Shown piece after piece: positions 13,999-53,700 of a stretch of 55,260 nucleotides of DNA. The position numbers and the translations under genes were made by a program. Numbering within the stretch: position 1 is the stretch's first letter; every line of letters begins with the position of its first letter. Source of the stretch: Minisyncoccota bacterium (lineage in GTDB: Bacteria > Patescibacteriota > Minisyncoccia > Phycocordibacterales > SBAW01). The notes beneath the pieces were generated by a model, which worked only from the letters and a program-made list of their open reading frames with translations, did not search any database and was not told the origin of the DNA. The stretch lies in the NCBI GenBank assembly GCA_035548815.1, contig DASZSF010000004.1, positions 1 through 55,260 on the forward strand, in the 5' to 3' direction.

Positions 13999-16068
13999 TT
14001 ACTGAATCGCAGTCATTTGATCTTGGCGTGTCCATCCATAGCAGCCATTGTTGTAGTCAATGTGCCACCAGGTGTAGCCATCGTTCTTGACCGGGCCCTC
14101 TTCAACATCACCAACCGAACCTGCCGGTTGCGTACAGCGAACTTTGGCTCGGAGTTCCGTCTTCGTGTAGGCGTTGATCTTTGTCGTGGTCTTTATCTTG
14201 CCGCCAATGTGGAACTGTGGAGTGTTTGAAAGCGTTGTTGCAGAAACAGTGCTTGAGAGCGCTGACGTATTACCTGCCGCATCAAAGGCAGATACTGCAT
14301 AGGTGTACTGCGTCGATGCGGTAAGTCCAGCATCTACGTATGACGTCGACTGACTGATAGCAACCTTTGTGCCGCCGCGATACACGTTGTACCCCGCAAC
14401 ACCGATATTGTCGCTCGAAGCTCTCCACGAAAGCGTTATCTGAGTCGACGAATTTGCGGTGGCGCTTACATTCGTCGGTGTCGAGGGTGTCGACGTATCA
14501 GATGCTGCCTGTGTCTTTGCCGATGCAGTGCCTGATTTTGCTGAGACGTTTCCTGCAGCATCGTATGCATCTACTGTGTAGCTGTATGTGGTTGCAGCTG
14601 ACAAACCAGTGTCAGTGAATGACGTGCCTTGGCTTGTGCCTACTTTGGTCCCGCCGCGATACACGTTGTAGCCTGTGACACCAACGTTATCAGTCGATGC
14701 GCTCCATGAGAGTGTAATTTGCGTTGCCGAATTTGCCGTTGCAGAAAGTCCGGTCGGTACGGAAGGCGCTGCAGTGTCGGCAGGAGCACCCGTCTGCTGT
14801 GCACCCACAAACGTGGTAACGCTCTTTGCTGGCAGAGTTGCTGTGAAGGCGCCGTTCGATGTAAGTATAGCGGCTTGAGCTTTGAGGTCTTCTGTTGCTG
14901 ACGTGCGCCATGGAGTTACCGAGGTCAGATTGGTGTCAACCTGCGTGCTCAAGGTGTAGCTCGAGCTCGTCTGGTTGATAGCAACGAGCGCGAACTTGCC
15001 TGTTGAAGGGTCCTTGTATGCAGACACCAAGATGCCAGTGGCAGGACTTGGGGTTGCTGCAATGCGCACAAAGCCCGGGCGCACGAAGCGTGCGAAGTTC
15101 CCCATCGTCCACAGACGCTTTGCAGGCTTCAGGTTGTAGTCGAGGAGTCCTTGGTTGTCATTATTGTAGAGCGTCCAGAACCACCAGTAGTCCCACGAGT
15201 TAACGTTGGCAACAGTAAGCCAGTTATGCGCATCTGCCGCCCAGCGAAGGCCGTTGTCTATCGAACCGTCGAACGTGTCATGGATGGTCGAAATTTCCGA
15301 CATCCAGAACTCCTTGCCCTGTGCAAGCGGATATACCGACGGGGAGTTGTAGTTGTAGTTATGGCTTGCGACGATGCCAACATACTGCGCAGCAGCAGGG
15401 TCCTGCATCGTAGCGTCAGCAAGGCTAAAGTCCCACCAGCTTTCTTCCGGTGCCATTATCTTGGTCGTGATGCCATTGGCCTGGAATGCCGGTCCGAGGT
15501 TGTTGAGGATGAAATCGTGAAGGTTCTGTCCCGTCCACAATGCTGTGTCGTAGGTAGATGTGTAGTCCGGCTCATTTTGAACCGAAAGTGCGTACAATGT
15601 AACGCCATACTGCGACTTCACTTTCTTCACGTAATTGGTCAGGTAGTCAGCATATGCTTGGTATGAGCCTGCTGCGAGCGAACCTCCATTCAAGTTGTTG
15701 TTCGTCTTCATTGACGGCGGAGGGGTCCACGGAGTTGCCCATGCGCGTGCGCCGCGAGCAACTGCCTTTTGCATAGTCGGGCCGCATTCAACCGTTCCGT
15801 CGGTAGGAACGCGTGCACGGATAAGTGACAGACCTGCTCCCGATGTCGTCGAGAAAAAGAGGTCGGCCTGCGCGTCGGTCATGTCAGGAAGCCATGGGCA
15901 TCCCGCACCAAACCCTACGATTGTCTGATATGTCTGATTCCACGAAACAGTAACGTTTGATGCGTGTGCAGGTGACACGACAATAAGCACAGCTACAAAC
16001 ACAGCGACCGCAATCCGTGCTAACGAAAGAATAGAGTCGCGTACGGACTCTGTAACAGTAGATGCCAT
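13999..16068 (-). CDS. Secreted glycoside hydrolase family 30-like enzyme with 2x fibronectin type III domains and a C-terminal SH3b-like domain
   Basis: An N-terminal signal anchor is present. The GH30-like core contains GFGAG, LSVQNEPDY, SHNYNYN and FWMSEIS. Two about 90-aa FN3 repeats follow (LSWSASTDNVGVTGYNVYRGGTKV), then a C-terminal GYTWWHIDYNNGCYGWTRQD. Confidence 0.7.
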   Translation of the reverse strand: MASTVTESVRDSILSLARIAVAVFVAVLIVVSPAHASNVTVSWNQTYQTIVGFGAGCPWLPDMTDAQADLFFSTTSGAGLSLIRARVPTDGTVECGPTMQKAVARGARAWATPWTPPPSMKTNNNLNGGSLAAGSYQAYADYLTNYVKKVKSQYGVTLYALSVQNEPDYTSTYDTALWTGQNLHDFILNNLGPAFQANGITTKIMAPEESWWDFSLADATMQDPAAAQYVGIVASHNYNYNSPSVYPLAQGKEFWMSEISTIHDTFDGSIDNGLRWAADAHNWLTVANVNSWDYWWFWTLYNNDNQGLLDYNLKPAKRLWTMGNFARFVRPGFVRIAATPSPATGILVSAYKDPSTGKFALVAINQTSSSYTLSTQVDTNLTSVTPWRTSATEDLKAQAAILTSNGAFTATLPAKSVTTFVGAQQTGAPADTAAPSVPTGLSATANSATQITLSWSASTDNVGVTGYNVYRGGTKVGTSQGTSFTDTGLSAATTYSYTVDAYDAAGNVSAKSGTASAKTQAASDTSTPSTPTNVSATANSSTQITLSWRASSDNIGVAGYNVYRGGTKVAISQSTSYVDAGLTASTQYTYAVSAFDAAGNTSALSSTVSATTLSNTPQFHIGGKIKTTTKINAYTKTELRAKVRCTQPAGSVGDVEEGPVKNDGYTWWHIDYNNGCYGWTRQDQMTAIQ
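14233..14766 (-). repeat. Tandem duplication encoding the two FN3 domains
   Basis: aa 435-527 and aa 528-612 of the GH30 protein are clearly paralogous (PS.PT..SATANS.TQITLSW.AS.DN.GV.GYNVYRGGTKV). Confidence 0.8.
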
Positions 16069-16887: not shown

Positions 16888-17793
16888 CTATTTTTTATTG
16901 AGCGTTTCGAGCGCTTTTTGCACGAGCGGGAGCATGTCCTCGTAAAAGTTGAGCTCAAGCGCGTCCTGCACCTTAAACCAGCGTGCATCATCAAGGCCGC
17001 CCGTAACTTTCAGTTGGATCTCGCCCCACGGCGCTTCGGCTAAAAAGTACACGACATGTTTGCGCTTCTTGCCAGTTTTAGGGTCCGACGCAACATATTC
17101 GTTCTCCCCCACTTTGTCCAAAAGTTTTATATCAAGGCCCATCTCTTCTTTTATTTCGCGAATGGTACCCTCTTCAACTGTTTCGTCTTTGAACTCTTCT
17201 TTGTCGCCAATCTTGCCTTTGGACAGCGTCCAGTGGCCGAATATGTCATGCACGAGCGCTAAGTAGATTTCTCCATCATGGCGCGCATAGACCACAGCGC
17301 CGCCCAAGTGCTGCACCGGCAATTGGTCGTAGGGAATGTCTTTTTTCTTTTTCGAGACCTCGTCTTTGCCTGGTTCGCCGAGTTCTTTGTAGACTGCGCC
17401 GAGCACGCCGTTGACGAAGCGTCCGCTGTTTTCTCCGCCGAAGTTTTTAGCGAGTTCGATGGCTTCGTTGATGGCGACTTTGGCAGGAACTTTTTCGCGG
17501 TCAGAAAAGAGCAGTTCAAAGAGGCCCAGCCGCAGAACATTTCTGTCGACGAGCGCGATGCGCGCGATAGGCCACTCAGGCGCGGCTTTTTCGATGACCA
17601 TATCAAGGTCATTCTTGCGCGAAAGCACACCGTCTAGAAGCTCTTCCATAAACGGCAAGTCGCTTGCGCCTGGCGCAAATTCATGAGCGTTTCTATCGAG
17701 AGCCTCTTCTGCTACTTCTTTTTTGCAATCGCGAAAGTCCCATTCAAAGAGGGTTTGAAGAACCACTGACCTTGATAAATGTCTATTCGCCAT
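16888..17793 (-). CDS. nusB: NusB-like antitermination domain fused to a Nudix hydrolase domain
   Basis: aa 1-140 are NusB-like (RSVVLQTLFEWDF...INEAIELAKNFGGENSGRFVNGVLG). aa 160-300 carry a Nudix box, GKIGDKEEFKDETVEEGTIREIKEEMGL. Confidence 0.75.
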   Translation of the reverse strand: MANRHLSRSVVLQTLFEWDFRDCKKEVAEEALDRNAHEFAPGASDLPFMEELLDGVLSRKNDLDMVIEKAAPEWPIARIALVDRNVLRLGLFELLFSDREKVPAKVAINEAIELAKNFGGENSGRFVNGVLGAVYKELGEPGKDEVSKKKKDIPYDQLPVQHLGGAVVYARHDGEIYLALVHDIFGHWTLSKGKIGDKEEFKDETVEEGTIREIKEEMGLDIKLLDKVGENEYVASDPKTGKKRKHVVYFLAEAPWGEIQLKVTGGLDDARWFKVQDALELNFYEDMLPLVQKALETLNKK

Positions 17794-21773: not shown

Positions 21774-22988
21774 ATGGAAGAACGCGACCACCGAATCATC
21801 GGCAAGGAATTAGACCTATTCACGTTTTCAGATTTAGTGGGTTCCGGCCTCCCGTTGTGGACGCCAAAAGGTACGGTATTCCGCACCGAGCTTGATAAAT
21901 TTATTTGGGAAATGCGCGAAGCCCGCGGATACGAACGGGTCACTATCCCCCATATCACCAAGCGCGACTTGTACGAACGTTCGGGCCACTGGGAAAAATT
22001 CTCTGAAGACCTCTTCCGCATCACATCACGCGAAGGCCGCGAATACGCGATGAAGCCGATGAACTGCCCGCATCACACGCAGATCTTTGATCGCAAACCG
22101 CACAGCTATCGCGAAATGCCCCAGCGCTATGCAGAAACTACCATGGTGTACCGAGACGAACAGTCCGGTGAACTTGGCGGTCTTACGCGCGTGCTTTCCA
22201 TAACACAAGACGACGCGCACGTATTTTGCCGCACCACACAAGTCCGCGAAGAATTTCTCAAGATCTGGGACATCGTCGACACCTTCTATCAAAAATTTGG
22301 ATTCACATTGCGCGTGCGCCTTTCCTTCCGCGACCCGGCAGCTCCTGAAAAGTATATCGGAACACCAGAAGTCTGGGATAAGGCAGAAGGCGAATTGCGC
22401 AGCTTGGCAGAAGAGCGCGGTGCGGACACCTTCGAAGGTCCAGGCGAGGCAGCCCTCTATGGCCCCAAACTCGACTTTATGGCAAAGAATGCTGCTGGCC
22501 GCGAGTGGCAAGTTGCAACCATTCAGCTCGACATGAATATTCCTGAACGCTTTGACCTAACGTGCGTTAACGAAAAAGGCGAAAAGGAACGTATTGTTAT
22601 GATCCATGCCGCAATCGCAGGTTCGCTTGAACGCTGTGCCGCAGTATTGCTCGAACACTTCGACGGCGCGTTGCCGCTGTGGCTCTCGCCTGTACAGGTT
22701 GCAGTGCTCCCTGTTGGCGAAACTCACAAAGCATATGCGGACGACGTTGTTGCAGAGCTAAAGAAAAATGGCATGCGTGTTGAATTACTTGCAGACGACT
22801 CGCTCGGCAAACGCATCCGCGAAACCAAAGTCAGCAAAGTCCCTTGTTTTATCGTTGTCGGAGACAAAGAAGTTGCAGACAAAACAGTGACGGTTGAGAA
22901 CAACAGAAATGGCGACAAGCAGACTGTGCTCATCGCCGATTTCATCGCACCTATGCTCGAACGCATTCGCGAACGCGCGAATAGTTAG
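21774..22988 (+). CDS. thrS: Threonine--tRNA ligase, catalytic core plus anticodon-binding domain only (no TGS or editing domains)
   Basis: It starts at ERDHRIIGKELDLFTF, which lies around residue 240 in full-length bacterial ThrRS. Class II motifs and a C-terminal anticodon-binding domain are present. Confidence 0.85.
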   Translation: MEERDHRIIGKELDLFTFSDLVGSGLPLWTPKGTVFRTELDKFIWEMREARGYERVTIPHITKRDLYERSGHWEKFSEDLFRITSREGREYAMKPMNCPHHTQIFDRKPHSYREMPQRYAETTMVYRDEQSGELGGLTRVLSITQDDAHVFCRTTQVREEFLKIWDIVDTFYQKFGFTLRVRLSFRDPAAPEKYIGTPEVWDKAEGELRSLAEERGADTFEGPGEAALYGPKLDFMAKNAAGREWQVATIQLDMNIPERFDLTCVNEKGEKERIVMIHAAIAGSLERCAAVLLEHFDGALPLWLSPVQVAVLPVGETHKAYADDVVAELKKNGMRVELLADDSLGKRIRETKVSKVPCFIVVGDKEVADKTVTVENNRNGDKQTVLIADFIAPMLERIRERANS

Positions 22989-23836
22989 GCAGTAATTTCG
23001 AAGAAGTATTCTTCAGCTTTTCGTGCGATTTTGTCCTGCACGCGCTTTACAACAACGAGGTAAGTGCCGAGCGCTGCCCAAACCGCCAAAAATGCCCAGT
23101 AGATGGCCGTGCCAATAGGACCCAAGTCGAGACCAGTATATGGCACTTGAGCCAGCAAGACCGTTTGCGTAAGAGTCGGAGCAGCGTAGGCTACCTGCGC
23201 TGCGTAGTAGTAGCAGTTCGGGTATGAGCCCATGTAGCCTGGCGGACAGTAGAAGCTGTACGGAGGATACTGAGGGGGCGGTGTGCCGCCGCAGTTAACC
23301 GTGCAGACTGGAGGATAGCAGTTTGTGTTGCAGATAGGAGGATTGCAGTTTGAAGTACAGCCTGGAGTGGTGCAGTTCGGAGGAGTCCCTGTCGTTCCAG
23401 GAGGGCAGCTTGGAACAACGCAGTTCGGATACGTGCCCGTCGTACCAGCTGGGCATGTAGGTGTTGAAGGCGGAATCACCGGAATGATAGGGGTGTCGCC
23501 AGTTACAGCGCCAGCATCACCGCCAGTAATTCCAGTATCGCCACCGCCACCGCAGCAACCGCCGCCAGTACCTGCATCACCATCACCATTTGCACCTCCG
23601 TCACCAGCGCCTCCAGCGCCTCCAGCGCCATCGCCACTGTCGCCACCTGCACCGCCGTCTCCGTCGCCACTGCCGTCTTGTGCGTGTGCAACATGGGCAT
23701 GGAATGCTGAAAGCACATTGCTGTGATCAGGGGTTGAAAACGAAACTGCGCCCGCTATAAAAAGGCCGGCAATCAAAAGGGCGCCCGCTACGCGTGCTGC
23801 AACAAAGAAAGCTGATGTGGTGGTTGTATTCTGCAT
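22985..23836 (-). CDS. Low-complexity surface protein (Gly/Asp-rich, then a Cys/Pro/Thr-rich CPPGTTGT.PNC region) with a C-terminal VPYTG sortase-type sorting signal
   Basis: It has an N-terminal signal anchor. VPYTGLDLG (23132-23146) is followed by a hydrophobic helix and KR. This C-terminus is paralogous to that of 26005..27141. Confidence 0.7.
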   Translation of the reverse strand: MQNTTTTSAFFVAARVAGALLIAGLFIAGAVSFSTPDHSNVLSAFHAHVAHAQDGSGDGDGGAGGDSGDGAGGAGGAGDGGANGDGDAGTGGGCCGGGGDTGITGGDAGAVTGDTPIIPVIPPSTPTCPAGTTGTYPNCVVPSCPPGTTGTPPNCTTPGCTSNCNPPICNTNCYPPVCTVNCGGTPPPQYPPYSFYCPPGYMGSYPNCYYYAAQVAYAAPTLTQTVLLAQVPYTGLDLGPIGTAIYWAFLAVWAALGTYLVVVKRVQDKIARKAEEYFFEITA

Positions 23837-23904
23837 ACTTGTAATACTTGGTAATAATTCGAACGACTCTTTATCGAAAGCCGATTATACATAATCGGTC
23901 CTCG

Positions 23905-23942
23905 AAAAAAAGTCGGGAGGGAGGCATCGCTGCCGCTCTCCC
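23905..23942 (-). terminator. Rho-independent terminator of GC-rich cassette B
   Basis: Minus strand: a GGGAGAGCGGCAGCGATGCCTCCCTCCC hairpin is followed by GACTTTTTTT. It lies 9 nt after the 23951 stop. Confidence 0.7.
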
Positions 23943-23950
23943 AACGCACC

Positions 23951-24481
23951 TCATCGAAAGAGGCGTTGTCTCTGCTTCAGGTCCTGGCACCCCTGGTCAC
24001 AGAGCTTTTGGTCCCACACGCATTCCATGTGGCCCAGCCGCATGCACCAGTTGCCGCAGACCTCGGGGAAGAACAAGGCGTAGTAGCGCGCCTCGCTGCC
24101 CGTGACGCGCCGAGCAGTATACATCCGCATCTTCTTGGTGGCGTTGCCCCATTTGGCGAAGTCCGACGCATCGACGATGACGTTTGGCGCCACGCCGTGA
24201 GCTCCGAAGAGCATGCGCGTTCCGCGCCAGCCCGGAAAAATCTGCGCCTCCGTGTACTGCCTGAGTTTCACCTTGCGGCGAAATTCGTCGGCGACATCCG
24301 GGTCCGGCGCCATCAGATCCCGGAATTGGCGAAGCGCATCTTCAAGGCGCACCCCGTTCTTGTCGTAAGGCTCAAAGCCGGGCCTGTACCAGTGAAAGAA
24401 GTTGTCCTTCCCCACTGCCGGCTCGGCCAGAAGCGCCAACCCTCCGGTTAGGAAGGAGCGCCGGCTCAACAACACGCTCAT
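23951..24481 (-). CDS. Hypothetical exported protein with a twin-arginine (Tat) type signal, Cys-rich C-terminus, cassette B gene 2
   Basis: The ATG at 24481 is preceded by the SD GGGAG. MSVLLSRRSFLTGGLALLA matches the S-R-R-x-F-L Tat consensus. GC3 is high. Confidence 0.6.
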   Translation of the reverse strand: MSVLLSRRSFLTGGLALLAEPAVGKDNFFHWYRPGFEPYDKNGVRLEDALRQFRDLMAPDPDVADEFRRKVKLRQYTEAQIFPGWRGTRMLFGAHGVAPNVIVDASDFAKWGNATKKMRMYTARRVTGSEARYYALFFPEVCGNWCMRLGHMECVWDQKLCDQGCQDLKQRQRLFR

Positions 24482-24485
24482 GCGT

Positions 24486-25163
24486 TCACTCCCTTCCGTA
24501 GACGAAATAGACAAGTGCTCCTCGCTTGCCCTGGTTGATCAGGTCCTCCAGATGGCTGACGCCCGGGGCGCTGCCCGGCTGGGCAATCTTGGTGCTCTGC
24601 CATCCCGCGAACTTCCCGTTTGTGATCGGGGGGTTGTATTTCGTAGGAATGTTGAGCTGGACTGCCACCATGGGTGACATGTTCCGTTCCCGCCGGAGAG
24701 CCATGAGCGGTTCCCGCGGCACCACCAAGGTGACCTGGCCGTTGACGACCGGGCCGTTTGTCGCCCTGGACTTTGACCTGGCGATGGTTGAAACCACCAC
24801 CTTTGACCACCCTCCGTCCGCTTGGACCAGCACGCTGCCCATGCAATACGCATTGCCGATGAGATACGGCAAGTGCAAAGGCAAACGCGTCGAATGGACG
24901 TTGAGGTAGTAGGTCAGAGTCATCGGGCCGAAGTAGCGCCCAACCGTGTCGAACAGCACCTGGCCGGCGCCGTTCGGGTTATCCATGACCGCATTGTAGG
25001 CTCGCGCCCCGTCTGCGACCACGAGCGTGTCGATATGGAAGCTCTGCGCGTCGTAGCGCATAACCTCTCCTGGGCGGCATGAAGGACCAGGTGCAGCTTC
25101 CGCCACACCGAGCATACTCAACACCGCGCCCGTAGCCGCAAGCAACATACGCCAATTCAACAT
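24486..25163 (-). CDS. Hypothetical secreted protein (225 aa, Sec signal peptide ...GVAEA/AP), cassette B gene 1
   Basis: The ATG at 25163 is preceded by the SD GGAGAG. Its stop lies 4 nt before the next start, indicating operon coupling. GC3 is roughly 70% versus roughly 50% in the neighbouring sortase gene. Confidence 0.6.
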   Translation of the reverse strand: MLNWRMLLAATGAVLSMLGVAEAAPGPSCRPGEVMRYDAQSFHIDTLVVADGARAYNAVMDNPNGAGQVLFDTVGRYFGPMTLTYYLNVHSTRLPLHLPYLIGNAYCMGSVLVQADGGWSKVVVSTIARSKSRATNGPVVNGQVTLVVPREPLMALRRERNMSPMVAVQLNIPTKYNPPITNGKFAGWQSTKIAQPGSAPGVSHLEDLINQGKRGALVYFVYGRE

Positions 25164-25311
25164 GGCACTCTCCTGGTTCTCCTGGTTCTGATCTATGTGT
25201 TAGTGTGCTTCATGAGCCTGAAGGCCACATGAAGAGACATACCTTCCACCATCCCGGCTGTGAGGCCGGGTTGCGAAGGCGTACCCGTGCGCCTCGCTAT
25301 TTTGTATAAAA

Positions 25312-25974
25312 TTAGTTCGAGGCGAGCGAATACGCTCCCACAAAATCAGCAGTAACAACAAAACGATCGCTCTTTGTTGCAAACGAATTGCATGTCACGA
25401 GCGTAAGATGTTTCCCTACTGGATTGAGCTCGATAGAATCGTCGTTTGCGTTCGCAGCTTTGACCTGCACAACCGCGTAGCGATATTCTGTGCCGCCAGA
25501 GTAGACGCTAACAGTCTGACCCGGTTTGAGCTTTTGGATATCGTCAAAGGTCTTGTACGCCTGGTTGTGCACCACGGGCAAATAACTGCTGTGGCCGAAC
25601 AACAAGACCGTACCATCAACTCCAAGCATCGCGCTTGTCGGATACCGGACAGCTCCATTCATAAGAGCCTCGTCGAGCACATCAACATCCACAGATGACG
25701 GATTTGCTATGGTCGCATCAAGTCCAATCTCCGACGCAATAATGCGTACAGGGACTTCGGGACTATTTGATACTGAGGCTGGTGCCGACCCGCTTACAAC
25801 CGGCTCGCTATGAACGGACGGATGTATCGGGTCAGGCGTAGCCCCAACGCTCATTAAAAAGAGGTAGCTCAATAGGAAGATAACGACAAACGCGGCTGCG
25901 AATGAGCCGCGATGGTCGTGAATTTCGGCTATTGCTCCCCTGTTGCGCGTTGCCATAGAATCTGTCGACACCAT
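25312..25974 (-). CDS. Sortase family transpeptidase
   Basis: It has an N-terminal membrane anchor, the catalytic His in LLFGHSS, the catalytic Cys in the HLTLVTCNS (TLxTC) motif, and a downstream Arg (SDRFVV). The start is ambiguous: TTG 25998, ATG 25974 or ATG 25956. Confidence 0.8.
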   Translation of the reverse strand: MVSTDSMATRNRGAIAEIHDHRGSFAAAFVVIFLLSYLFLMSVGATPDPIHPSVHSEPVVSGSAPASVSNSPEVPVRIIASEIGLDATIANPSSVDVDVLDEALMNGAVRYPTSAMLGVDGTVLLFGHSSYLPVVHNQAYKTFDDIQKLKPGQTVSVYSGGTEYRYAVVQVKAANANDDSIELNPVGKHLTLVTCNSFATKSDRFVVTADFVGAYSLASN

Positions 25975-26004
25975 ACAGTGTAGAACAAAACTTGTCAACT
26001 AGGA

Positions 26005-27141
26005 TTACGCCTGGGTGCGCAATTCGATCTGCGAAAGGATGAAGGGGTCGATAGGATCAACGACTGCCTTGGTTTCCCTATGGAGGTCTGAGTGGCTGGT
26101 ATGAGCAACGATATGGTCGGCAGACGTGTGGACATGAGTGTTGTGTGCATTTGTGTGGGTCTCGGAAGCTACTTGTGCATGAGACGCGTCGCCGAAGAGG
26201 AAGGTTACGAATTTGTTCTGGATACGCTTGACGACAATGAGGTATGCCGCAAAGAGGCACCAGAGGATGAGGAAGCCCCAGTAGGCAATAGTTCCCCATA
26301 CTCCAAGATCAAGACCGGTGTACGGCAACGACGAGAGTGTAACGTACGGGTTGTTTCCAACTGCGACCGGACCACCAATGATGACCGGGTACGAAGCCGG
26401 AGTGTTCGTGTAGTAACCCGAACCGCCGTAGATGACAGAGCCTGAACCCTGGGTCGTAGTCTGCGTAATAGTCTTGTTGCAATTATTCGTGCCATTGCAT
26501 GCATTGACGTTGGTCGTGCCAGTCGTCCCGTACTTCGGATATGTCGCGGTCGGATAATACGTCGAGCCGTAGTAGCCAGATGTGCCGTAGTAGCTCGAGC
26601 CGTATCCATAGGTACCGTAGTAGTACGGAGTGCCGTAGTTGTAGGAACCGTAGGTAACAGGAGTTGCTACATATCCGCCAGTTGAAGTGTAGACAGGAGT
26701 GGTAGAAACTGGAGAATATGTTGCGTAGTCAGTGGTGCCGTAGCTCGGAGAATAATTCGCGTAATCCATAGGGCTGTAATTAGCGTAGTCGTATGAAGGC
26801 GAGTAGTTTGCATAATCCTGGCTTGCAGGAGAGTAGTTTGCGTAGTCTTGAGTCGTAGGAGAATAGTTCGCAAAGTCCTGCGTTGAACCTACCGGGGAAT
26901 AGTTGGCAAAGTCAGAAGCCGTAGTTGCTGAATAGTATGCGTAATCTGCTGAACCAGCTGACGGAGAATAGTTTGCATAATCAAAACTACCACCACTTGG
27001 AGAGTAATTTGCATAATCTCCATCATCATCTGCATGTGCAGCAAATGGAGCTACGAAGGCAGCTGCAAAGACCACAAAGACAAGAAGTCCTGCGACAACT
27101 GTGGTATGTTTCTGTGCGATTGACGTGGTTTGCATAAGCAT
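26005..27141 (-). CDS. Tyr-rich repetitive surface protein ((D/F)YANYSP repeats) with an LPYTG sorting signal and a long His-rich tail after the membrane anchor
   Basis: A signal peptide is followed by about 10 DYANYSP-type repeats and a Y/G/T/S-rich region. LPYTGLDLG (26314-26328), a TM helix and KR come next, then about 70 further residues. Confidence 0.7.
   Translation of the reverse strand: MLMQTTSIAQKHTTVVAGLLVFVVFAAAFVAPFAAHADDDGDYANYSPSGGSFDYANYSPSAGSADYAYYSATTASDFANYSPVGSTQDFANYSPTTQDYANYSPASQDYANYSPSYDYANYSPMDYANYSPSYGTTDYATYSPVSTTPVYTSTGGYVATPVTYGSYNYGTPYYYGTYGYGSSYYGTSGYYGSTYYPTATYPKYGTTGTTNVNACNGTNNCNKTITQTTTQGSGSVIYGGSGYYTNTPASYPVIIGGPVAVGNNPYVTLSSLPYTGLDLGVWGTIAYWGFLILWCLFAAYLIVVKRIQNKFVTFLFGDASHAQVASETHTNAHNTHVHTSADHIVAHTSHSDLHRETKAVVDPIDPFILSQIELRTQA
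26710..27018 (-). repeat. Tandem degenerate repeats encoding (D/F)YANYSP units
   Basis: aa 42-144 read DYANYSPSGGSF DYANYSPSAGSA DYAYYS... DFANYSP... DYANYSP... DYATYSP. Confidence 0.8.
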
Positions 27142-27187
27142 TCAATTATTTTTTAATTACTCATCTGGTTACACAGACGGGGTTCTC

Positions 27188-27201
27188 TCACGAGAGCCTT
27201 T
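27188..27201. repeat. 14-bp direct repeat TCACGAGAGCCTTT, copy 1
   Basis: Identical to 27655-27668. It lies 47 nt upstream of the 27141 start on the gene-sense strand. Confidence 0.7.
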
Positions 27202-27309
27202 TTATATACCTTTTGAAGATATACAACCTAGGCGTGCATGAAATTTGTTCACCGGGAGGAGTCAGGATTAATCCTTTCTCCCCCCGTTGAACGGTAGTCG
27301 TCGGCCAAG

Positions 27310-27597
27310 CTACTGCTTGGCTTCGGCCTCCACGACGGGGCAGCCCTGGTAGATCACCAGGCACTGCCTGTCGCCCGGGACGGCCGGGTTGGCTCGGCAC
27401 CTGGACTGGTCGACGTAAGGGCGGCCGCCTTCGGAAAGGCACCGGTCCCAGCGGCCCTGGTTCGACAGGCCGGTGTTTCTGTACACCGTACCAGTCTTCG
27501 GGTCGGTGATGTTCGGCGCCCGGTTCTGTTGGGCGAAAACATTCATCGAGAAGACCAGGCTGCCGACGAGGGCGACGGTTGCGACTTTGACGAACAT
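27310..27597 (-). CDS. Hypothetical small secreted Cys-containing protein (95 aa), cassette C gene 2
   Basis: The ATG at 27597 is preceded by the SD GGGAG, and a signal peptide MFVKVATVALVGSLVFSMNVFAQQ follows. The track ORF starts at an upstream GTG. Confidence 0.6.
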   Translation of the reverse strand: MFVKVATVALVGSLVFSMNVFAQQNRAPNITDPKTGTVYRNTGLSNQGRWDRCLSEGGRPYVDQSRCRANPAVPGDRQCLVIYQGCPVVEAEAKQ

Positions 27598-27654
27598 TGA
27601 AGGTACTCCCTGTGATAGAAACGATTTGAACGAATGCACTCTCAGTGAAGCTAT

Positions 27655-27668
27655 TCACGAGAGCCTTT
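27655..27668. repeat. 14-bp direct repeat TCACGAGAGCCTTT, copy 2
   Basis: Identical to 27188-27201. It lies 58 nt upstream of the 27597 start. Confidence 0.7.
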
Positions 27669-27721
27669 CTAAACATCTCAACCGAGATGTACAGCATAGG
27701 CGCTTGCGAAAGAGTGGTACC

Positions 27722-27748
27722 GGCAGGTGATGAAATTCATCACCTGCC
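27722..27748 (-). terminator. Perfect 13-bp palindrome between the cassette C genes (terminator or attenuator-like)
   Basis: GGCAGGTGATGAA-A-TTCATCACCTGCC lies 23 nt after the 27771 stop. There is no strong T-run, so its function is uncertain. Confidence 0.4.
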
Positions 27749-27770
27749 GAAACCGAGGTTTGCGAAGAAC

Positions 27771-28301
27771 TTACTTGATGTCCTCGAACTTGCGGTTGAA
27801 GCCGCCGTTCGAGGCGGGGCCCGGAGGTGGCAGGGGCACCGGCGTCGCCGTCGGTCCCGGCGGTGCCGGGGGCGTCGCCGGAGCGGCCGTCGTCGGAGCT
27901 GCGGCCGGAGCCACCACTTGCGTGGATGAGCTCCAGGGAGCCCACCAGAAGAGCCCGAGGACGACAGCCGCGATTGCGGCGGCGATTGCGGCGGTGGCGA
28001 CAACCTTTCTGCCCAAGTTCGGCCCGTTCCCTTGCGGGTTCGGATCCGCCTGCCGCTGCTGCGGCGCCGGCGCGGGGGCCGGATCCGGGTGGTGGGCGGC
28101 GTCGTCGCGATTGACGACCTGCGCCAGACCCATGTCGACCGTCTCCGGTTCGACGTCCGTGACACCGGGCCTCACGGGCCCAACGTCTCGCGTCTGCCGG
28201 GTGTAGCGGGGGTCCTGCAGATCCTGCTCGCTGGCACGAAGCCAGCGGGGCTTGTTGACGACGGGCCCCAAACCGAGGGGCATATTGCCTGCGTTAGCCA
28301 T
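27771..28301 (-). CDS. Hypothetical single-pass membrane protein with a Pro/Ala/Thr-rich extracytoplasmic tail (176 aa), cassette C gene 1
   Basis: The ATG at 28301 is preceded by the SD GGAAGGGA. It has a TM helix VVATAAIAAAIAAVVLGLFWW. I chose this frame over overlapping alternatives because of the promoter, the SD and the TM helix. Confidence 0.5.
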   Translation of the reverse strand: MANAGNMPLGLGPVVNKPRWLRASEQDLQDPRYTRQTRDVGPVRPGVTDVEPETVDMGLAQVVNRDDAAHHPDPAPAPAPQQRQADPNPQGNGPNLGRKVVATAAIAAAIAAVVLGLFWWAPWSSSTQVVAPAAAPTTAAPATPPAPPGPTATPVPLPPPGPASNGGFNRKFEDIK

Positions 28302-28388
28302 GATGGCATTCCCTTCCTGCTGTTGACGAAGAATCGACTTCCTTGTGACAAGGCCTGTAAAAGCCTTATTTCACTTGGTACATTTGCT

Positions 28389-28417
28389 ATTATACGCCTA
28401 AAGGCAGAGCTTGTCAA
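28389..28417 (-). promoter_or_regulatory. Consensus sigma70 promoter of cassette C (TTGACA-17-TATAAT)
   Basis: Minus strand: TTGACA is at 28417-28412, a 17-nt spacer follows, and TATAAT is at 28394-28389. Confidence 0.6.
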
Positions 28418-28448
28418 GTACCCCCAATAACGACATAAAATACCATCC

Positions 28449-28477
28449 TTGACAAGCATTTTTGGCTATGGTAGGTT
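28449..28477 (+). promoter_or_regulatory. Promoter of the CARDB-like gene (TTGACA-17-TAGGTT), predicting a leaderless mRNA
   Basis: The -10 ends 6 nt before the ATG at 28484, and there is no SD. Confidence 0.45.
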
Positions 28478-28483
28478 GCCGGC

Positions 28484-29593
28484 ATGACAACTACATCAGG
28501 GACAACCGCGAAAGACCGTGTTTTGCGCATTATAGCCATTTTTGGCCTTATTGTTATTTTGCTTTTGGGCGCATGGGGCATCATCCAGATAGCCTTCGCG
28601 CTCTATGGTTTTTTGGGTAATACCGATTCAAACACATCGGCCACCAAACAGGAGACCGTCCTCGTAACTGCGCCTTCGAGTGTCACCTCTGGCTCGCCTT
28701 TTAATCTTTCCTTTACGCACCAAAATGCGACTGGCAACTACGCGTACGACATTTCGTACTCATGTGCTGCTGGTTTGAGCATCCAGGCCCCCCTTCCTAC
28801 AGGCGCATTGCAGAATGTCCCCTGCAACACCCCATTCAATTACACTGGCGCAACTGCCAATATGGCATTGACCCCGACCATCACCGGCTCGTCCCCTATC
28901 TCGACCACCTTTACTGTTGCAGCACGCAACTTGGCATCGAACAAGACAACCGCAAGCGCAACTGCAAACACCACGGTTGTTCCGGGCACTACGAAGTCTT
29001 CAACCACAAGTTCAATCTCTGGCACCACGACCACCAAGCCTAAGCCGACAACCACCTACGTTCCAGCACAGCGCGTGCAGACCCTCTACGGTTCTCCTGA
29101 CCTTGCAGTTTCTATCACCACTGTGTCAGGCGGCAATGGTCAGTATTCTGCAACCTTCACTATCCAGAACGTCGGCACGAACATCACTCCATCAAATTGG
29201 ACGTTCAACGCATGGTTGCCGACAAGCGCGGGCTACACCTACACGTCGGCACCTCAGCAGGCGCTCCGCCCGGGTGACAAGATTGTATACACACTTTCAT
29301 TCAACCTTGGAAGCTCGTACAACTACACCAACTATCAGTACGGAAGTGGGTATTACTACTACCCGACGAACTGCGGATACACGTCTAACTACACCTACAA
29401 CGGTGCATACAGCTACCCTGGCTACAACTACAACTGCACTCCGCAGTACACCAACTCGTACAATTACAATACTTATCCGTACGGCCAGTACCAGCCGACA
29501 TACGGCGGCACGATGACTATCACCGTTGATCCGAACAACGCTGTGTGGGAAAGCTCAGAAGCTAATAACACCGCAAGCGCAACGCTTCGCTAA
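28484..29593 (+). CDS. Membrane-anchored surface protein with a CARDB-like domain and a Tyr/Asn/Gly-rich insert
   Basis: It has an N-terminal TM helix. PDLAVSITTVSGGNGQYSATFTIQNVGTN ... TITVDPNNAVWESSEANNTASATL resembles the CARDB fold signature. The Y-rich stretch is SSYNYTNYQYGSGYYYYPTNCGYTSNYTYNGAYSYPGYNYN. Confidence 0.6.
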   Translation: MTTTSGTTAKDRVLRIIAIFGLIVILLLGAWGIIQIAFALYGFLGNTDSNTSATKQETVLVTAPSSVTSGSPFNLSFTHQNATGNYAYDISYSCAAGLSIQAPLPTGALQNVPCNTPFNYTGATANMALTPTITGSSPISTTFTVAARNLASNKTTASATANTTVVPGTTKSSTTSSISGTTTTKPKPTTTYVPAQRVQTLYGSPDLAVSITTVSGGNGQYSATFTIQNVGTNITPSNWTFNAWLPTSAGYTYTSAPQQALRPGDKIVYTLSFNLGSSYNYTNYQYGSGYYYYPTNCGYTSNYTYNGAYSYPGYNYNCTPQYTNSYNYNTYPYGQYQPTYGGTMTITVDPNNAVWESSEANNTASATLR

Positions 29594-50724: not shown

Positions 50725-53700
50725 TTATTCGCTGATAATGACTGTCCGTGTTGCCGTCCCTGTATTCCCTGCCTCATCGATTGCGCTGTAGAGGATCATG
50801 TGCGAACCTGCCGTTGATGTATCGAGCTGAAACTCTGCAGGAGACGTGCTTGTTGCTCCATCAAGCGACATTCTGTAGCCAATATTTGGACTGCCCGCGT
50901 CTACTATAGTAACGCCCATGTCACTATAGACATCGCCCACATGGAGTTCTGCCGGATCATCACCCTGTACCGTCAGCGCAGGCGGAGTTGTATCGGTTGA
51001 AGACGCGTTGCCAGAGTTTGGAGGCGTCGAAGCAGAACTCTCTCCCGCGGCGCCTACACCACTGGAAGAGTTCTGCGCAGATGCCGAAGAAGCGCCTGAA
51101 AGCAGCTGGTCAAGTTGACTCCGAGTGATGCAGGTCTCGCCCGAGTCGTCGCTGATGCAGAGCTGGTCAGTATGAATTTCGTGCGCGAACACCTTGTTGA
51201 ACACACCGACAGTCGCATATACGGCGGTGTTGAACAGCTTGACCACTGTGCTGCCGATGCCGCCTATAGCGCCGCGCAAAGCGCCCGAGAACGTAGCGGC
51301 CGTCGAAGAGGCGGCGAGCGCCGCGGCGCTCGTGGTTGCGTTGAGTGCATCGCCTATCGCCTCGATCGGTGTGCCCTGCTGGGGGTCGACGTAGACCATG
51401 ATCTGGTCGTCGCCCGCGGCGCCCGCGGCCGTCGAAGAGGCGGTGCCGTAGTCCACCAGTGCGCGGCCGACGCTCGTGTCGAGCGGATCGGCCTTCATGC
51501 CGACGCCCGGCACCGACGACTGCGTGATGCGGTCGCCGACCTTGATGGGGCCGTTTTCGAGCGAAACGCGCATCGGCACGCGACCTGCCATGGAAAGGAG
51601 GATGTGCGACTGGTGCCACTGCGTCTTAAGGTCGGTCGCGACATCCGACTGGATGTCGTTACCGGTATAGGACGGGTAGTTCGACACGGCGCCGATGAGC
51701 ATGTCGTCGTGCGCGCGGCCGCACAGACCGTAGGTGTCGGGCGAGGTGCCCTGCATGCAGATCAGCGAACCGTCGGGGTAGTCGGCCGCTGCAGTGCCGG
51801 GAACGGGGTCCACATATTCAGCGTAGTCGGCGCCCTGCAAGCGCGAGCCAGCGAAATTGGTGTTGATGGCTGAACCGGAGATGGTGGTGCTCGTATCCGA
51901 ATAGCCGTCGCCTACAATGTAGTCCGTCGTACCATTCATGTCGACGATAGCGACTGCCGTCGCAATGGTGACGTTCCCTTGGGAGCCCGACTGCTCGACT
52001 ATATTTCCAAGCGCAGAGCCGTTTTTTGCAATAGCCGCGTAGCACGAGCCGGTAACACCGCAATAGACGTTGAGTCGGATGAGGTATTTGCCCGGCACCG
52101 TCGGCGTGAAGCGGCCGGTCCCCGTGTCGAAGTTATTGTTGGTGTCGAAGATTTCATGCGACCAGGTGAGCTGGGTGTAGGTAGAAAGTGATACGCTCTG
52201 GTCCGTGCCGTTCTTGTCCACACTGAACGCGGGCACTGCGCCCGTCGCATAGAGGCACGTGCCCGCCACGCGGAAGCAGCTGCCGGACGAGACGTTGATG
52301 TCGCCGCTTACATCGAGCTTGTACTGCGGGTTGGTGTTGCCAATACCGACGTTGCCATTCCCCACAAGCGTCATCACAGTTGCCTGTGTCGTTGCTGAGG
52401 CATTGCTGACTAGGAAAAACATCTTGTTGTTTGCGAGCGTACTGCCATCAAAGTTGTTCGCAATTCCACTGCGGTAATTCCCCGACGCGTCATATGTAAA
52501 CAGAAGATCGCTTACGCCTGCGTTATTCGCCGAGAGAACATTAAGTTTCGCTTGCGGAGCGGTGACGCCTATGCCGACGTTGCCGCCTGTCGCCTGCAAC
52601 AGCACGTAGCCAGTGGTGCCATTGCCCACGCCCGCGCCACCCGCGCCACCCGAGATGCTTACCGAGCCGCCGTTGCCGCCGGCGGTGAATAAGCCAGTTG
52701 CACCTGGGCCGCCTGCCAGCACGATGCCGCTGCCGTTCGCCCCATTGCCCGTCATCGTGCCGCCCTGGATATACGCACTGATAGCGGTGTTAGTCGCGCC
52801 CAAGACCGACAGGGTCGCGCTGGGCGAAGTGGAGCCGATGCCGACGTTGCCGCTTGAGGTGATGTGGAGGTGGTCCGCCGTGATGCCTGAGCCGAGAATG
52901 ACGGGGCCACCGTTAGTGGTTATAGCGAGCGCCGCGTTCGAGGTGCTCTGCCAAATGGTGTTGCTCGTGTCGCCACCGTTAAGTCTAAGTGTGCTGCCCG
53001 CATAGAGATAGCCACTCGTGGTAACTGCTGCGCCGTGCTGCACGTAGAGTGCGCCATTGCCGAGCGAAACGTCGCCGCTCGTGTCGCTTATCGTGAGCGG
53101 CCGCAGCGAATTCCAGCCGCCGTACTGGTCGCCCGACGCGGTAAGGAGGAAGTAAAAGTTGGAGCCATCGTTGTAGAGCATGTCGCCGTAATTGCCATTC
53201 ACCGCGCGGAAGGCGACGGCGTTGGTTGACTGCACCTCGGCGCTCGCGCGCAGCGACCCGCCGAGATCTATCGAGCCCCATGCGCTGCCTGTCCAGTATC
53301 CGATCGTCGCACGGTCGGTCGCCGTCTCGGGCTTGAACGTCAAGAATTTCGTCCCCGCCGTATTCTGTACCGTGAGTGTATCGCTGCCGTTGCTCGCGGC
53401 CTTGACCGAAAGCACGCCCTTGTTCACCGACAGATTCGTCGCAGTGCTGCCGTCGCCCACGTACACGCTGCCGCCGTTGTTGTAGTTGATGTACGTGGCG
53501 ATCGACGATTGATCGGGATTGATATGGACGATGCCTCCGCCGGAATATAGGCGCGTCGTGTTGGAGCCGTCCACGCTAAGGACGCTGACTGCGGTGCCGC
53601 CCGAATTCTTTATCTGGTACGCCGTGTTGTTGGCAAGCACGAGGTTGCCCTGGAGCATGTTGGTGTCGTTGCTCTGCTGCAAGAGAGAGCCGTAATAGCT

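Follow-up and report, generated by a model that had tools for sequence, protein, structure and literature searches.

A conserved locus in one lineage of Patescibacteria pairs an unclassified sortase with predicted repeat-protein substrates bearing a PYTG motif

We have analysed a stretch of 55,260 nucleotides from a Minisyncoccota bacterium (assembly GCA_035548815.1, contig DASZSF010000004.1), called the window below. Its minus strand encodes a sortase and two candidate substrates with a PYTG motif, subA (type A) and subB (type B), and its plus strand encodes a divergent CARDB-like partner, p369. A first-pass annotation, made by a model from the letters alone, had proposed a sortase cluster with paralogous PYTG substrates here; the open reading frames (ORFs) lie where it had placed them, and a common module is present in both substrates. 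The locus is conserved across one Patescibacteria lineage, namely Adlerbacteria, Kaiserbacteria and related Paceibacterota. Its features are given below, with the evidence for each in brackets (TM, transmembrane).

25312-25956, minus strand: sortase, 214 amino acids (Pfam, alignments, AlphaFold2, Foldseek, PDB sequence search)
25846-25902, minus strand: N-terminal TM anchor of the sortase, with a Phe ladder (alignment)
25585-25599, 25390-25401 and 25354-25368, minus strand: catalytic residues H122, C189 and R198 of the sortase, respectively (alignments)
26005-27141, minus strand: subA, type A PYTG substrate, 378 amino acids (ORF, feature map, orthologues)
27031-27141, minus strand: Sec-type signal peptide of subA, residues 1-37, ending in AHA before DDD (sequence reading, orthologues; cleavage predicted)
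26710-27018, minus strand: ten tandem (D/F)(Y/F)A(N/Y/T)YS(P/A) repeats of subA (feature map)
26302-26352, minus strand: juxtamembrane motif of subA, NPYVTLSSLPYTGLDLG, with predicted sortase cleavage at T275/G276 (analogy with LPXTG)
26230-26301, minus strand: conserved aromatic TM helix of subA, VWGTIAYWGFLILWCLFAAYLIVV (alignment)
26008-26229, minus strand: cytoplasmic tail of subA, KRIQNKFVTFLFG, then a linker, then DPIDPFILSQIELRTQA (alignment)
26059-26190, minus strand: His-rich linker of subA (sequence)
26008-26058, minus strand: C-terminal motif of subA, DPIDPFILSQIELRTQA (alignment)
22985-23836, minus strand: subB, type B PYTG substrate, 283 amino acids (ORF, orthologues, feature map)
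23510-23680, minus strand: Gly/Asp tract of subB with a CC pair, residues 53-109 (feature map)
23420-23455, 23372-23407 and 23213-23248, minus strand: three CPxGTTGTxPNC loops of subB, of the CP(A/P)G..G..PNC type (feature map)
23120-23164, 23048-23119 and 22988-23047, minus strand: PYTG motif, TM helix and short tail of subB, respectively (feature map)
28484-29593, plus strand: p369, present in 66 of 80 related loci (alignment, AlphaFold2)
28523-28612, plus strand: N-terminal TM helix of p369 (alignment)
28655-28981, plus strand: Ig-like domain of p369 with two invariant Cys (alignment)
29048-29584, plus strand: CARDB-like domain of p369, following a Ser/Thr linker and split by a Tyr/Asn/Gly insert
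29315-29500, plus strand: disordered Tyr/Asn/Gly insert of p369 (AlphaFold2)

Judged from its sequence, the protein encoded at 25312-25956 is a member of the sortase superfamily, matching PF04203 in Pfam with 66.3 bits (cut-off 26.6; E 2.7e-18), and transpeptidase activity is predicted for it. Comparison with homologues places its start at the ATG at 25956, giving 214 amino acids, in place of the TTG at 25998. The catalytic residues that the first-pass annotation had picked out, H122 (FGHSS), C189 (LVTC) and R198 (DRFVV), are conserved at 100% in alignments of 23 and of 120 homologues. Among the 120, the ladder of F19, F23 and F27 (i, i+4, i+8) in the TM anchor is at least 97.5% conserved. The AlphaFold2 model (pLDDT 80) consists of a helix at residues 8-36 and a beta-barrel, and its top Foldseek matches are sortases throughout (E 1.8e-10 and below, TMt 0.6-0.8), with near-equal scores for SrtD (4d70), SrtE (9m4u), SrtA (2kw8) and SrtC (2xwg). 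Classification with hidden Markov models (HMMs), a check that had been proposed for this protein, confirmed the superfamily and reached no class. None of the NCBIfam models for sortase classes A-F and GN gave more than 34 bits against cut-offs of 140-166, the best scores being 32.6 for class C, 31.7 for class E, 28.4 for SrtD, 26.9 for class D, 21.7 for GN and 19.2 for class F. Therefore, the sortase falls outside every curated class, in an unclassified clade. The closest relatives of the sortase and of its neighbour genes come from Candidatus Adlerbacteria and other Patescibacteria metagenome-assembled genomes (MAGs).

Both substrates end in (L/V)PYTGLDLG, a Trp/Tyr-rich TM helix and VVKR(I/V)Q(N/D)K. 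The first-pass annotation had recognised these three elements as a sorting signal, and they stand; it had missed that they are part of a far larger conserved module with a cytoplasmic tail. Based on this size, which exceeds that of a minimal signal, the system differs from a plain LPXTG anchor. In the window the back-translated PYTG motif has two occurrences, where 100 shuffles give an expectation of 0.00. A word-indexed search with a 58-residue module profile returned 10 truncated gene calls only, and an exhaustive HMM search of 1.84 billion cluster representatives with the PYTG-module profile was used instead. This search matched 834 proteins at E <= 1e-3 and 261 at E <= 1e-10. Unless another sample size is given, statistics on motif and tail below refer to the best 147 family representatives, and those on ectodomains to 194 family members.

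The PYTG motif, whose conservation in orthologues had been named as a check, is found as xPYTG in 144 of the 147 representatives, and P, Y, T and G are each invariant in the orthologue alignment A2. The residue before it is V in 115 of the 144, A in 11, T in 7, I in 5, L in 3 and M in 3. Compared with L-P-x-T-G, the P, T and G are thus invariant, Tyr always fills position x and the first position holds V, A, T, I, L or M; an acidic residue comes after the Gly, like in many LPXTG signals. Including the residues before it, the consensus reads P-Y-V-(T/S)-L-S-x-(V)-P-Y-T-G-L-(D/E)-L-G. In the TM helix, Y27, W28 and Y40 are invariant, and its conservation is well above what hydrophobicity needs.

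After the helix, the module continues with V-K-(R/K)-V-Q-N, a juxtamembrane F-L-F-G, a variable linker of Ala, Thr, Val, Ser, Pro and His, and a terminal motif, (I/T)-D-x-F-(I/V/L)-x-S-Q-(I/V/L)-x-R, which is present in 132 of the 144 representatives and stops 2-6 residues short of the C-terminus. In subA, 102 residues follow the T-G, and in subB 48; the short tail of subB does not hold the terminal motif. Family-wide the linker contains 6.2% His, with 8% or more in 64 of 182 tails. The subA linker has 11 His in 44 residues, and H-x-H or AH(A/T) runs are common in orthologous tails, a pattern suggestive of cytoplasmic metal binding. As for the motif DPFILSQI, we considered a likeness to the C-terminal peptide of FtsZ (DIPxFLR) and set it aside, as the spacing between Pro and Phe differs.

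The Kaiserbacteria-type proteins are long forms (L059, L065, L067-L069, L071, L074, L076, L078 and L079, where L numbers denote compared loci; an example is L078:8813-12976), with 260-290 residues past the motif and a cytoplasmic extension of about 230 residues. The residues past the motif include GYSxYEGFKSFA..LSIEDIVKGLSR; the extension has repeats of the VEPIYENVEPI type and a conserved helical C-terminal region of about 110 residues (..LDDAYRAR.DG..C..). The helical cytoplasmic region has 36 invariant columns; it matched nothing in Pfam or NCBIfam, and a profile search of the PDB gave nothing below E 0.5. In hhalign, the terminal motif of the short forms was aligned onto LSIEDIVKGLSR of the long forms, with low confidence in that part; if this placement is right, the short forms resemble truncated long forms. 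Searches of Pfam, NCBIfam and PHROGs gave no significant family for either substrate, for two cassette ORFs or for the long-form proteins.

In subA, the signal peptide is followed by ten acidic Tyr repeats and a G/Y/S/T tract; a CNGTNNC loop then precedes the PYTG module with its long cytoplasmic tail. About ten (D/F)YANYSP repeats followed by a Y/G/S/T tract had been described in it, and we counted exactly 10 copies of (Y/F)A(N/Y/T)YS(P/A) in residues 43-144, with the tract behind them; TRF detected the array in part, with a period of 30. The acidic Tyr repeats are specific to lineages, with DYANYSP in the window and DSGYSYTP, DGGVGSY, NYGTIT or YDYYPD in orthologues. Type A proteins have a common architecture and not a common sequence, in which a G/Y tract precedes a small C-x-x-N-N-x-C-N loop. 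In subB, the Gly/Asp tract and the Cys/Pro repeats reported earlier were both recovered, at residues 53-109 and as the three loops listed above. Type B paralogues, found in L001-L005, L014, L025, L045 and L046, have in common a poly-(G/D) tract that contains GGCCGG, CPxGTTGTYPNC loops in several copies and a Q/N/Y tract.

The N-terminal hydrophobic segments of both substrates read as signal peptides. In type A the AHA|D/Q junction is conserved, subA orthologues keeping (V/T)AHA|(Q/A/D)D. In subB the junction sits 17 residues beyond the N-terminal helix, and its cleavage is uncertain for this reason. The ectodomains contain 13.7% T, 12.3% S, 10.5% Y, 10.0% G, 9.8% P and 8.3% N. Their median Lys count is 0 (none in 122 of the 194) and the median count of Asp plus Glu is 8. 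Based on the 834 cluster representatives, the conserved signal-peptide junction and the conserved composition, the substrate ORFs can be taken as real, selected proteins, mostly of low complexity. Disulfide cross-linking between coat proteins, a speculative possibility in the first-pass annotation, was not supported: the Cys count is even in 180 of the 194 members and the Cys lie in short CPxGxxGxYPxC or CxxNNxCN loops, which favours intramolecular disulfides over intermolecular cross-links. With respect to dityrosine or other oxidative cross-linking, the scanned window ORFs included no peroxidase, laccase or tyrosinase.

For the comparative genomics of the cluster, we used 80 genome loci from Adlerbacteria, Kaiserbacteria and Paceibacterota, retrieved by way of sortase homologues. 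The same gene order is seen in most of them, namely gyrB, the divergent CARDB-like gene, the sortase, one or more PYTG proteins, thrS and dnaE; gyrB is present in 69 of the loci, the CARDB-like gene in 66, thrS in 50 and dnaE in 42. Besides the two in the window, 65 ORFs with PYTG(L/F)(D/E)(L/M)(G/S) were found in 56 of the 80 loci, each of which has at least one such ORF within 7 kb of the sortase on the same strand. Most genomes have one substrate only. In L096 and L105 the CARDB-like gene comes immediately after that for the substrate. The window covers 55 kb of the organism, and a metagenome scan with the back-translated PYTG motif served as a proxy for a genome-wide census. It yielded 65 module-bearing loci, and 55 of them carry one or more markers of this syntenic neighbourhood; the ten without a marker are mostly on short contigs, L137 having about 5.9 kb upstream and no marker. 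Where at least 5 kb upstream was available, a sortase was present in 12 of 13 loci, the exception being L137. These results suggest that PYTG proteins are confined to a single locus and, therefore, that the system is a dedicated one and not a general housekeeping sortase whose clients are scattered.

A paralogous sortase clade with 50-52% identity was also observed (L056:6971-7576, L062:1091-1693 and L073:6956-7555), in a neighbourhood of copper-ATPase, DsbA-like and cupredoxin-like genes and no PYTG protein. L062 and the PYTG-linked L029 belong to one MAG, so that some genomes hold two sortases with presumably different clients.

The p369 family comprises 341 matches, all unnamed, and its TM helix GLxxxLxLGAWGII is almost invariant. 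This protein had been described as a CARDB-like fold combined with a Tyr/Asn/Gly-rich insert. The insert was borne out, and as for the CARDB-like fold, 20 of 38 orthologues match PF07705 (best E 2.8e-8), although the window copy itself stays below the threshold (13.8 bits against a cut-off of 22.7; E 0.071) because the insert splits the domain. Across the family this insert is rich in Tyr, Asn, Gly and Cys and 0-80 residues long. AlphaFold2 predicted the TM helix, two beta-sandwiches at high pLDDT and disorder for the insert at residues 278-339. A Foldseek search gave generic tandem Ig matches only, with TM scores below 0.3, and hence no functional lead. A membrane complex is suggested by the co-conservation of p369 and by the conservation of its TM helix.

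We consider it fairly probable that these genes form a dedicated sortase/substrate locus, in which a sortase of an unclassified clade anchors Lys-free, acidic repeat proteins rich in Ser, Thr, Tyr, Gly, Pro and Asn to the envelope. In the mechanism that we propose, both substrates would be exported by Sec through their N-terminal signal peptides, and type B may keep an N-terminal anchor. The conserved aromatic TM helix and the VKR stop-transfer behind it would retain them in the membrane, and the juxtamembrane segment PYVTLSx-(V/I/L)PYTG-L(D/E)LG would be presented to the neighbouring membrane-anchored sortase. The sortase would cleave between Thr and Gly by means of His122, Cys189 and Arg198, and would pass the ectodomain on to an acceptor amine, for which a peptidoglycan precursor is the likeliest candidate. 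An SLT-type lytic transglycosylase encoded in the window is consistent with a peptidoglycan wall. The outcome would be covalently bound, net-acidic repeat proteins on the cell surface with small disulfide loops, for which a coat or adhesive function is conceivable. Gene content, motif, catalytic residues, fold, conservation and linkage come directly from the data; from these we infer export, cleavage site, acceptor, TM recognition and the roles of tail and ectodomain.

Recognition probably reaches into the membrane and may involve the Phe ladder of the sortase, the Y-W...Y residues of the substrate helix and the GLxxxLxLGAWGII helix of the CARDB-like protein. TM-TM contacts between sortase A and a substrate have been proposed elsewhere from simulations (PMC12393392). 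Considering the cytoplasmic continuation, with FLFG, the Ala/Thr/His linker, DxFIxSQIxR and, in the Kaiserbacteria type, a further helical region of about 150 residues, a partner in the cytoplasm probably binds, or receives a signal from, the precursor or the fragment that remains after cleavage. In a wider and tentative version, which we regard as doubtful, a sortase class specific to the candidate phyla radiation (CPR) would act on a bitopic 'anchor-and-report' substrate; the Tyr-rich, Lys-free repeat ectodomains, ligated to the envelope, would form a hydrogel-like or glycan-binding coat for episymbiotic contact, the conserved TM helix and tail (a full domain in the Kaiserbacteria type) would couple this event to a cytoplasmic partner, and recognition would take place among the three co-conserved TM helices.

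The tail also permits an alternative in which signalling or regulated processing is the main purpose and the TM-plus-tail fragment, split from the ectodomain by sortase cleavage at PYT|G, is the output, reporting envelope status or localising partners via DxFIxSQIxR or the domain of about 230 residues. The position of the terminal motif so close to the C-terminus, the invariant columns of the long-form helical region and the conservation of the TM helix past hydrophobicity needs all agree with this. There is also a precedent for a functional remnant in Streptococcus gordonii, where SGO_1180 senses the C-peptide left by sortase A (cited in PMC11326707). However, the locus has no conserved sensor kinase or regulator, type B paralogues do not carry the tail motif, and the compositional conservation of the large ectodomains points to the ectodomain as the product. 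As a main purpose we therefore consider signalling unlikely, while it is compatible with anchoring and does not exclude it.

Four observations weigh against anchoring by the sortase. First, 41-140 residues (median 91) follow the T-G, and 260-290 in the long forms, unlike in characterised sorting signals; because this stretch is so long and atypical for sortase substrates, an uncleaved bitopic protein is conceivable. Second, the LPXTG-anchor models PF00746 (Pfam) and TIGR01167 (NCBIfam) match neither substrate at E <= 1. Third, the gyrB, thrS and dnaE flanks are collinear in these genomes (in 42-69 of the 80 loci), so that adjacency alone is weak evidence. Fourth, L137 and L169, of the IPYTGFDLG subfamily, have no sortase within 3.4-5.9 kb upstream, the L169 contig holding only about 3.4 kb upstream of the substrate gene. 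Together with the second sortase in another context within one MAG (L029 and L062), they allow a reading in which the PYTG proteins stay uncleaved, their module serves oligomerisation or docking, the sortase serves other substrates and its adjacency reflects general synteny. On the other hand, an invariant P-x-T-G that directly precedes a TM helix with its basic residues is the signature of a sortase signal. No further candidate substrate was found in the window, where the combination of xPx[TSA]G and a TM C-terminus is absent from all other ORFs. Chance synteny as a full explanation is also weakened by L074, in which the sortase, the long-form PYTG protein and the CARDB-like gene stand together and gyrB, thrS and dnaE are absent, by L160, in which a 40%-identical sortase directly follows an IPYTGFDLG variant, and by the sortase in 12 of 13 informative metagenome loci. 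Accordingly, we regard uncleaved PYTG proteins as distinctly unlikely.

A sortase-polymerised, class C-like pilus or fibre with a type A shaft and a type B base or tip was rejected as very improbable: two paralogous substrates do surround one sortase, subA contains 'YPK' (TATYPKYG) and the Foldseek scores for SrtC are similar to those for other classes, but Lys is absent from most ectodomains, which disfavours polymerisation through Lys isopeptides, L001 and L003 have not kept the YPK of subA, a second substrate is missing from most genomes, neither CnaB nor Ig pilin domains were found in the substrates or long forms, and the class C HMM gave 32.6 bits against a cut-off of 160.

Between the core genes lie slots that hold different small secreted proteins in different genomes. 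In the window, subB starts 1476 bp downstream of the sortase stop, in agreement with the earlier estimate of about 1.5 kb, past the first two of the following ORFs.

24486-25163, minus strand: secreted protein of 225 amino acids with a signal peptide; homologues in 3 of the 80 loci, no family match
23951-24514, minus strand: small protein of 187 amino acids with a twin-arginine-like signal and a Cys-rich C-terminus; weak Pfam TAT_signal match, present in 10 of the 80 loci
27310-27639, minus strand: small secreted Cys-containing ORF of 109 amino acids between subA and the CARDB-like gene; uncertain member of the system
27771-28301, minus strand: Pro/Ala-rich ORF of 176 amino acids with one TM segment; window-specific, coding uncertain

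Homologues of 24486-25163 in L001 and L003 have lipoboxes and are lipoprotein-like. The signal of 23951-24514 reads RRSFLTGG, and RR(S/T/N)FL is conserved in the same two loci. The ORF at 27310-27639 has no homologue in the 80 loci at E 1e-5, and unrelated secreted proteins occupy this slot elsewhere. The surrounding stretch, 27188-28460 between subA and the CARDB-like gene, is of high GC content, has no homologue in related loci and contains long Pro/Ala/Arg-rich ORFs that overlap on both strands (27771-28301 on the minus and 27727-28206 on the plus strand); the coding status of 27771-28301 is uncertain because of this overlap.

As for other window genes, thrS (21774-22988, plus strand) encodes 404 amino acids with the class II core and the anticodon-binding domain, without N-terminal TGS or editing domains, and related loci have the same short form. 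At 16888-17793 (minus strand), one ORF joins a NusB domain (residues 7-136) to a NUDIX hydrolase domain (172-292). The gene at 13999-16068 (minus strand) encodes a glycoside hydrolase of family GH30 that also has FN3 and RGI-lyase-type beta-sheet domains; in a reduced genome, it may be an enzyme secreted to degrade polysaccharides. The protein of 1485 amino acids at 50725-55182 (minus strand) has a Gp34_trimer domain (E 1.6e-21), known from the trimerisation of phage long tail fibres, together with a C1q-like domain and, at its C-terminus, a bacterial surface Ig-like domain. Possibly a fibre-like adhesin, it has no PYTG signal and is unrelated to the sortase locus.

Very little has been described of the surface biology of CPR bacteria. 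More than half of them have a sortase, and the paper that reports this does not give substrates or signals (PMC6744442). The locus described here offers a concrete candidate pair of enzyme and signal, xPYTGL[D/E]LG, and its PYTG proteins are probably the main wall-attached proteins of a large Paceibacteria lineage. Our literature search returned no paper tying PYTG to a sortase signal; the sole co-occurrence was in an unrelated Clostridium vaccine paper. A sortase with a new specificity, with Tyr at P2 and tolerance at P4, could also serve protein ligation.

Among known systems, PEP-CTERM/exosortase, PGF-CTERM/archaeosortase, GlyGly-CTERM/rhombosortase and MYXO-CTERM/myxosortase are built on tripartite sorting domains (PMC3237569; 10.1101/2023.06.07.544157). 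Like these, the PYTG system has a motif, a TM helix and a basic cluster with a co-occurring enzyme and was found by comparative genomics. However, the CTERM enzymes are unrelated polytopic proteases, their signals end the protein and their pairing is usually many-to-one. The remnant that we propose here resembles the S. gordonii case in that a membrane fragment has a function of its own after sortase cleavage. In S. gordonii (cited in PMC11326707), a histidine kinase senses a remnant that is no more than a minimal TM peptide, whereas the PYTG proteins have a conserved tail or domain and no linked kinase. A sorting signal fused to conserved cytoplasmic sequence would widen the concept of a sortase substrate.

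The class A sortase and its LPXTG substrates, such as SrtA and protein A of Staphylococcus aureus, agree with the present system in the membrane-anchored Cys transpeptidase, predicted here, with its His/Cys/Arg triad and beta-barrel, and in substrates that start with a signal peptide and carry P-x-T-G ahead of a hydrophobic helix and basic residues. They differ as follows. The motif here is xPYTGL(D/E)LG, with an invariant Tyr and a variable Leu position, and the class HMMs are not reached; one or two dedicated substrates lie next to the sortase instead of many dispersed ones; and a conserved TM helix with a conserved cytoplasmic extension of 40-290 residues stands in place of a short basic tail.

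The proteobacterial TIGR03784 (class GN, marine) sortase is paired with an adjacent globular target of vWFA type. As in these pairs, one sortase is genomically paired with its cognate target and the signal is lineage-specific. However, the sortase here scores 21.7 bits against a cut-off of 158 and belongs to another phylum with another envelope. In Streptomyces, a class E sortase (LAXTG) anchors the long chaplins, which are small, non-enzymatic, self-associating coat proteins made of hydrophobic amyloid domains and without a cytoplasmic tail. The parallel lies in a sortase outside class A that would attach coat proteins to the wall. In contrast to the chaplins, the ectodomains of the PYTG proteins are polar, acidic and rich in Tyr, Ser, Thr and Gly, their motif is another one, and the sortase beside them scores 31.7 bits with the class E HMM against 160.

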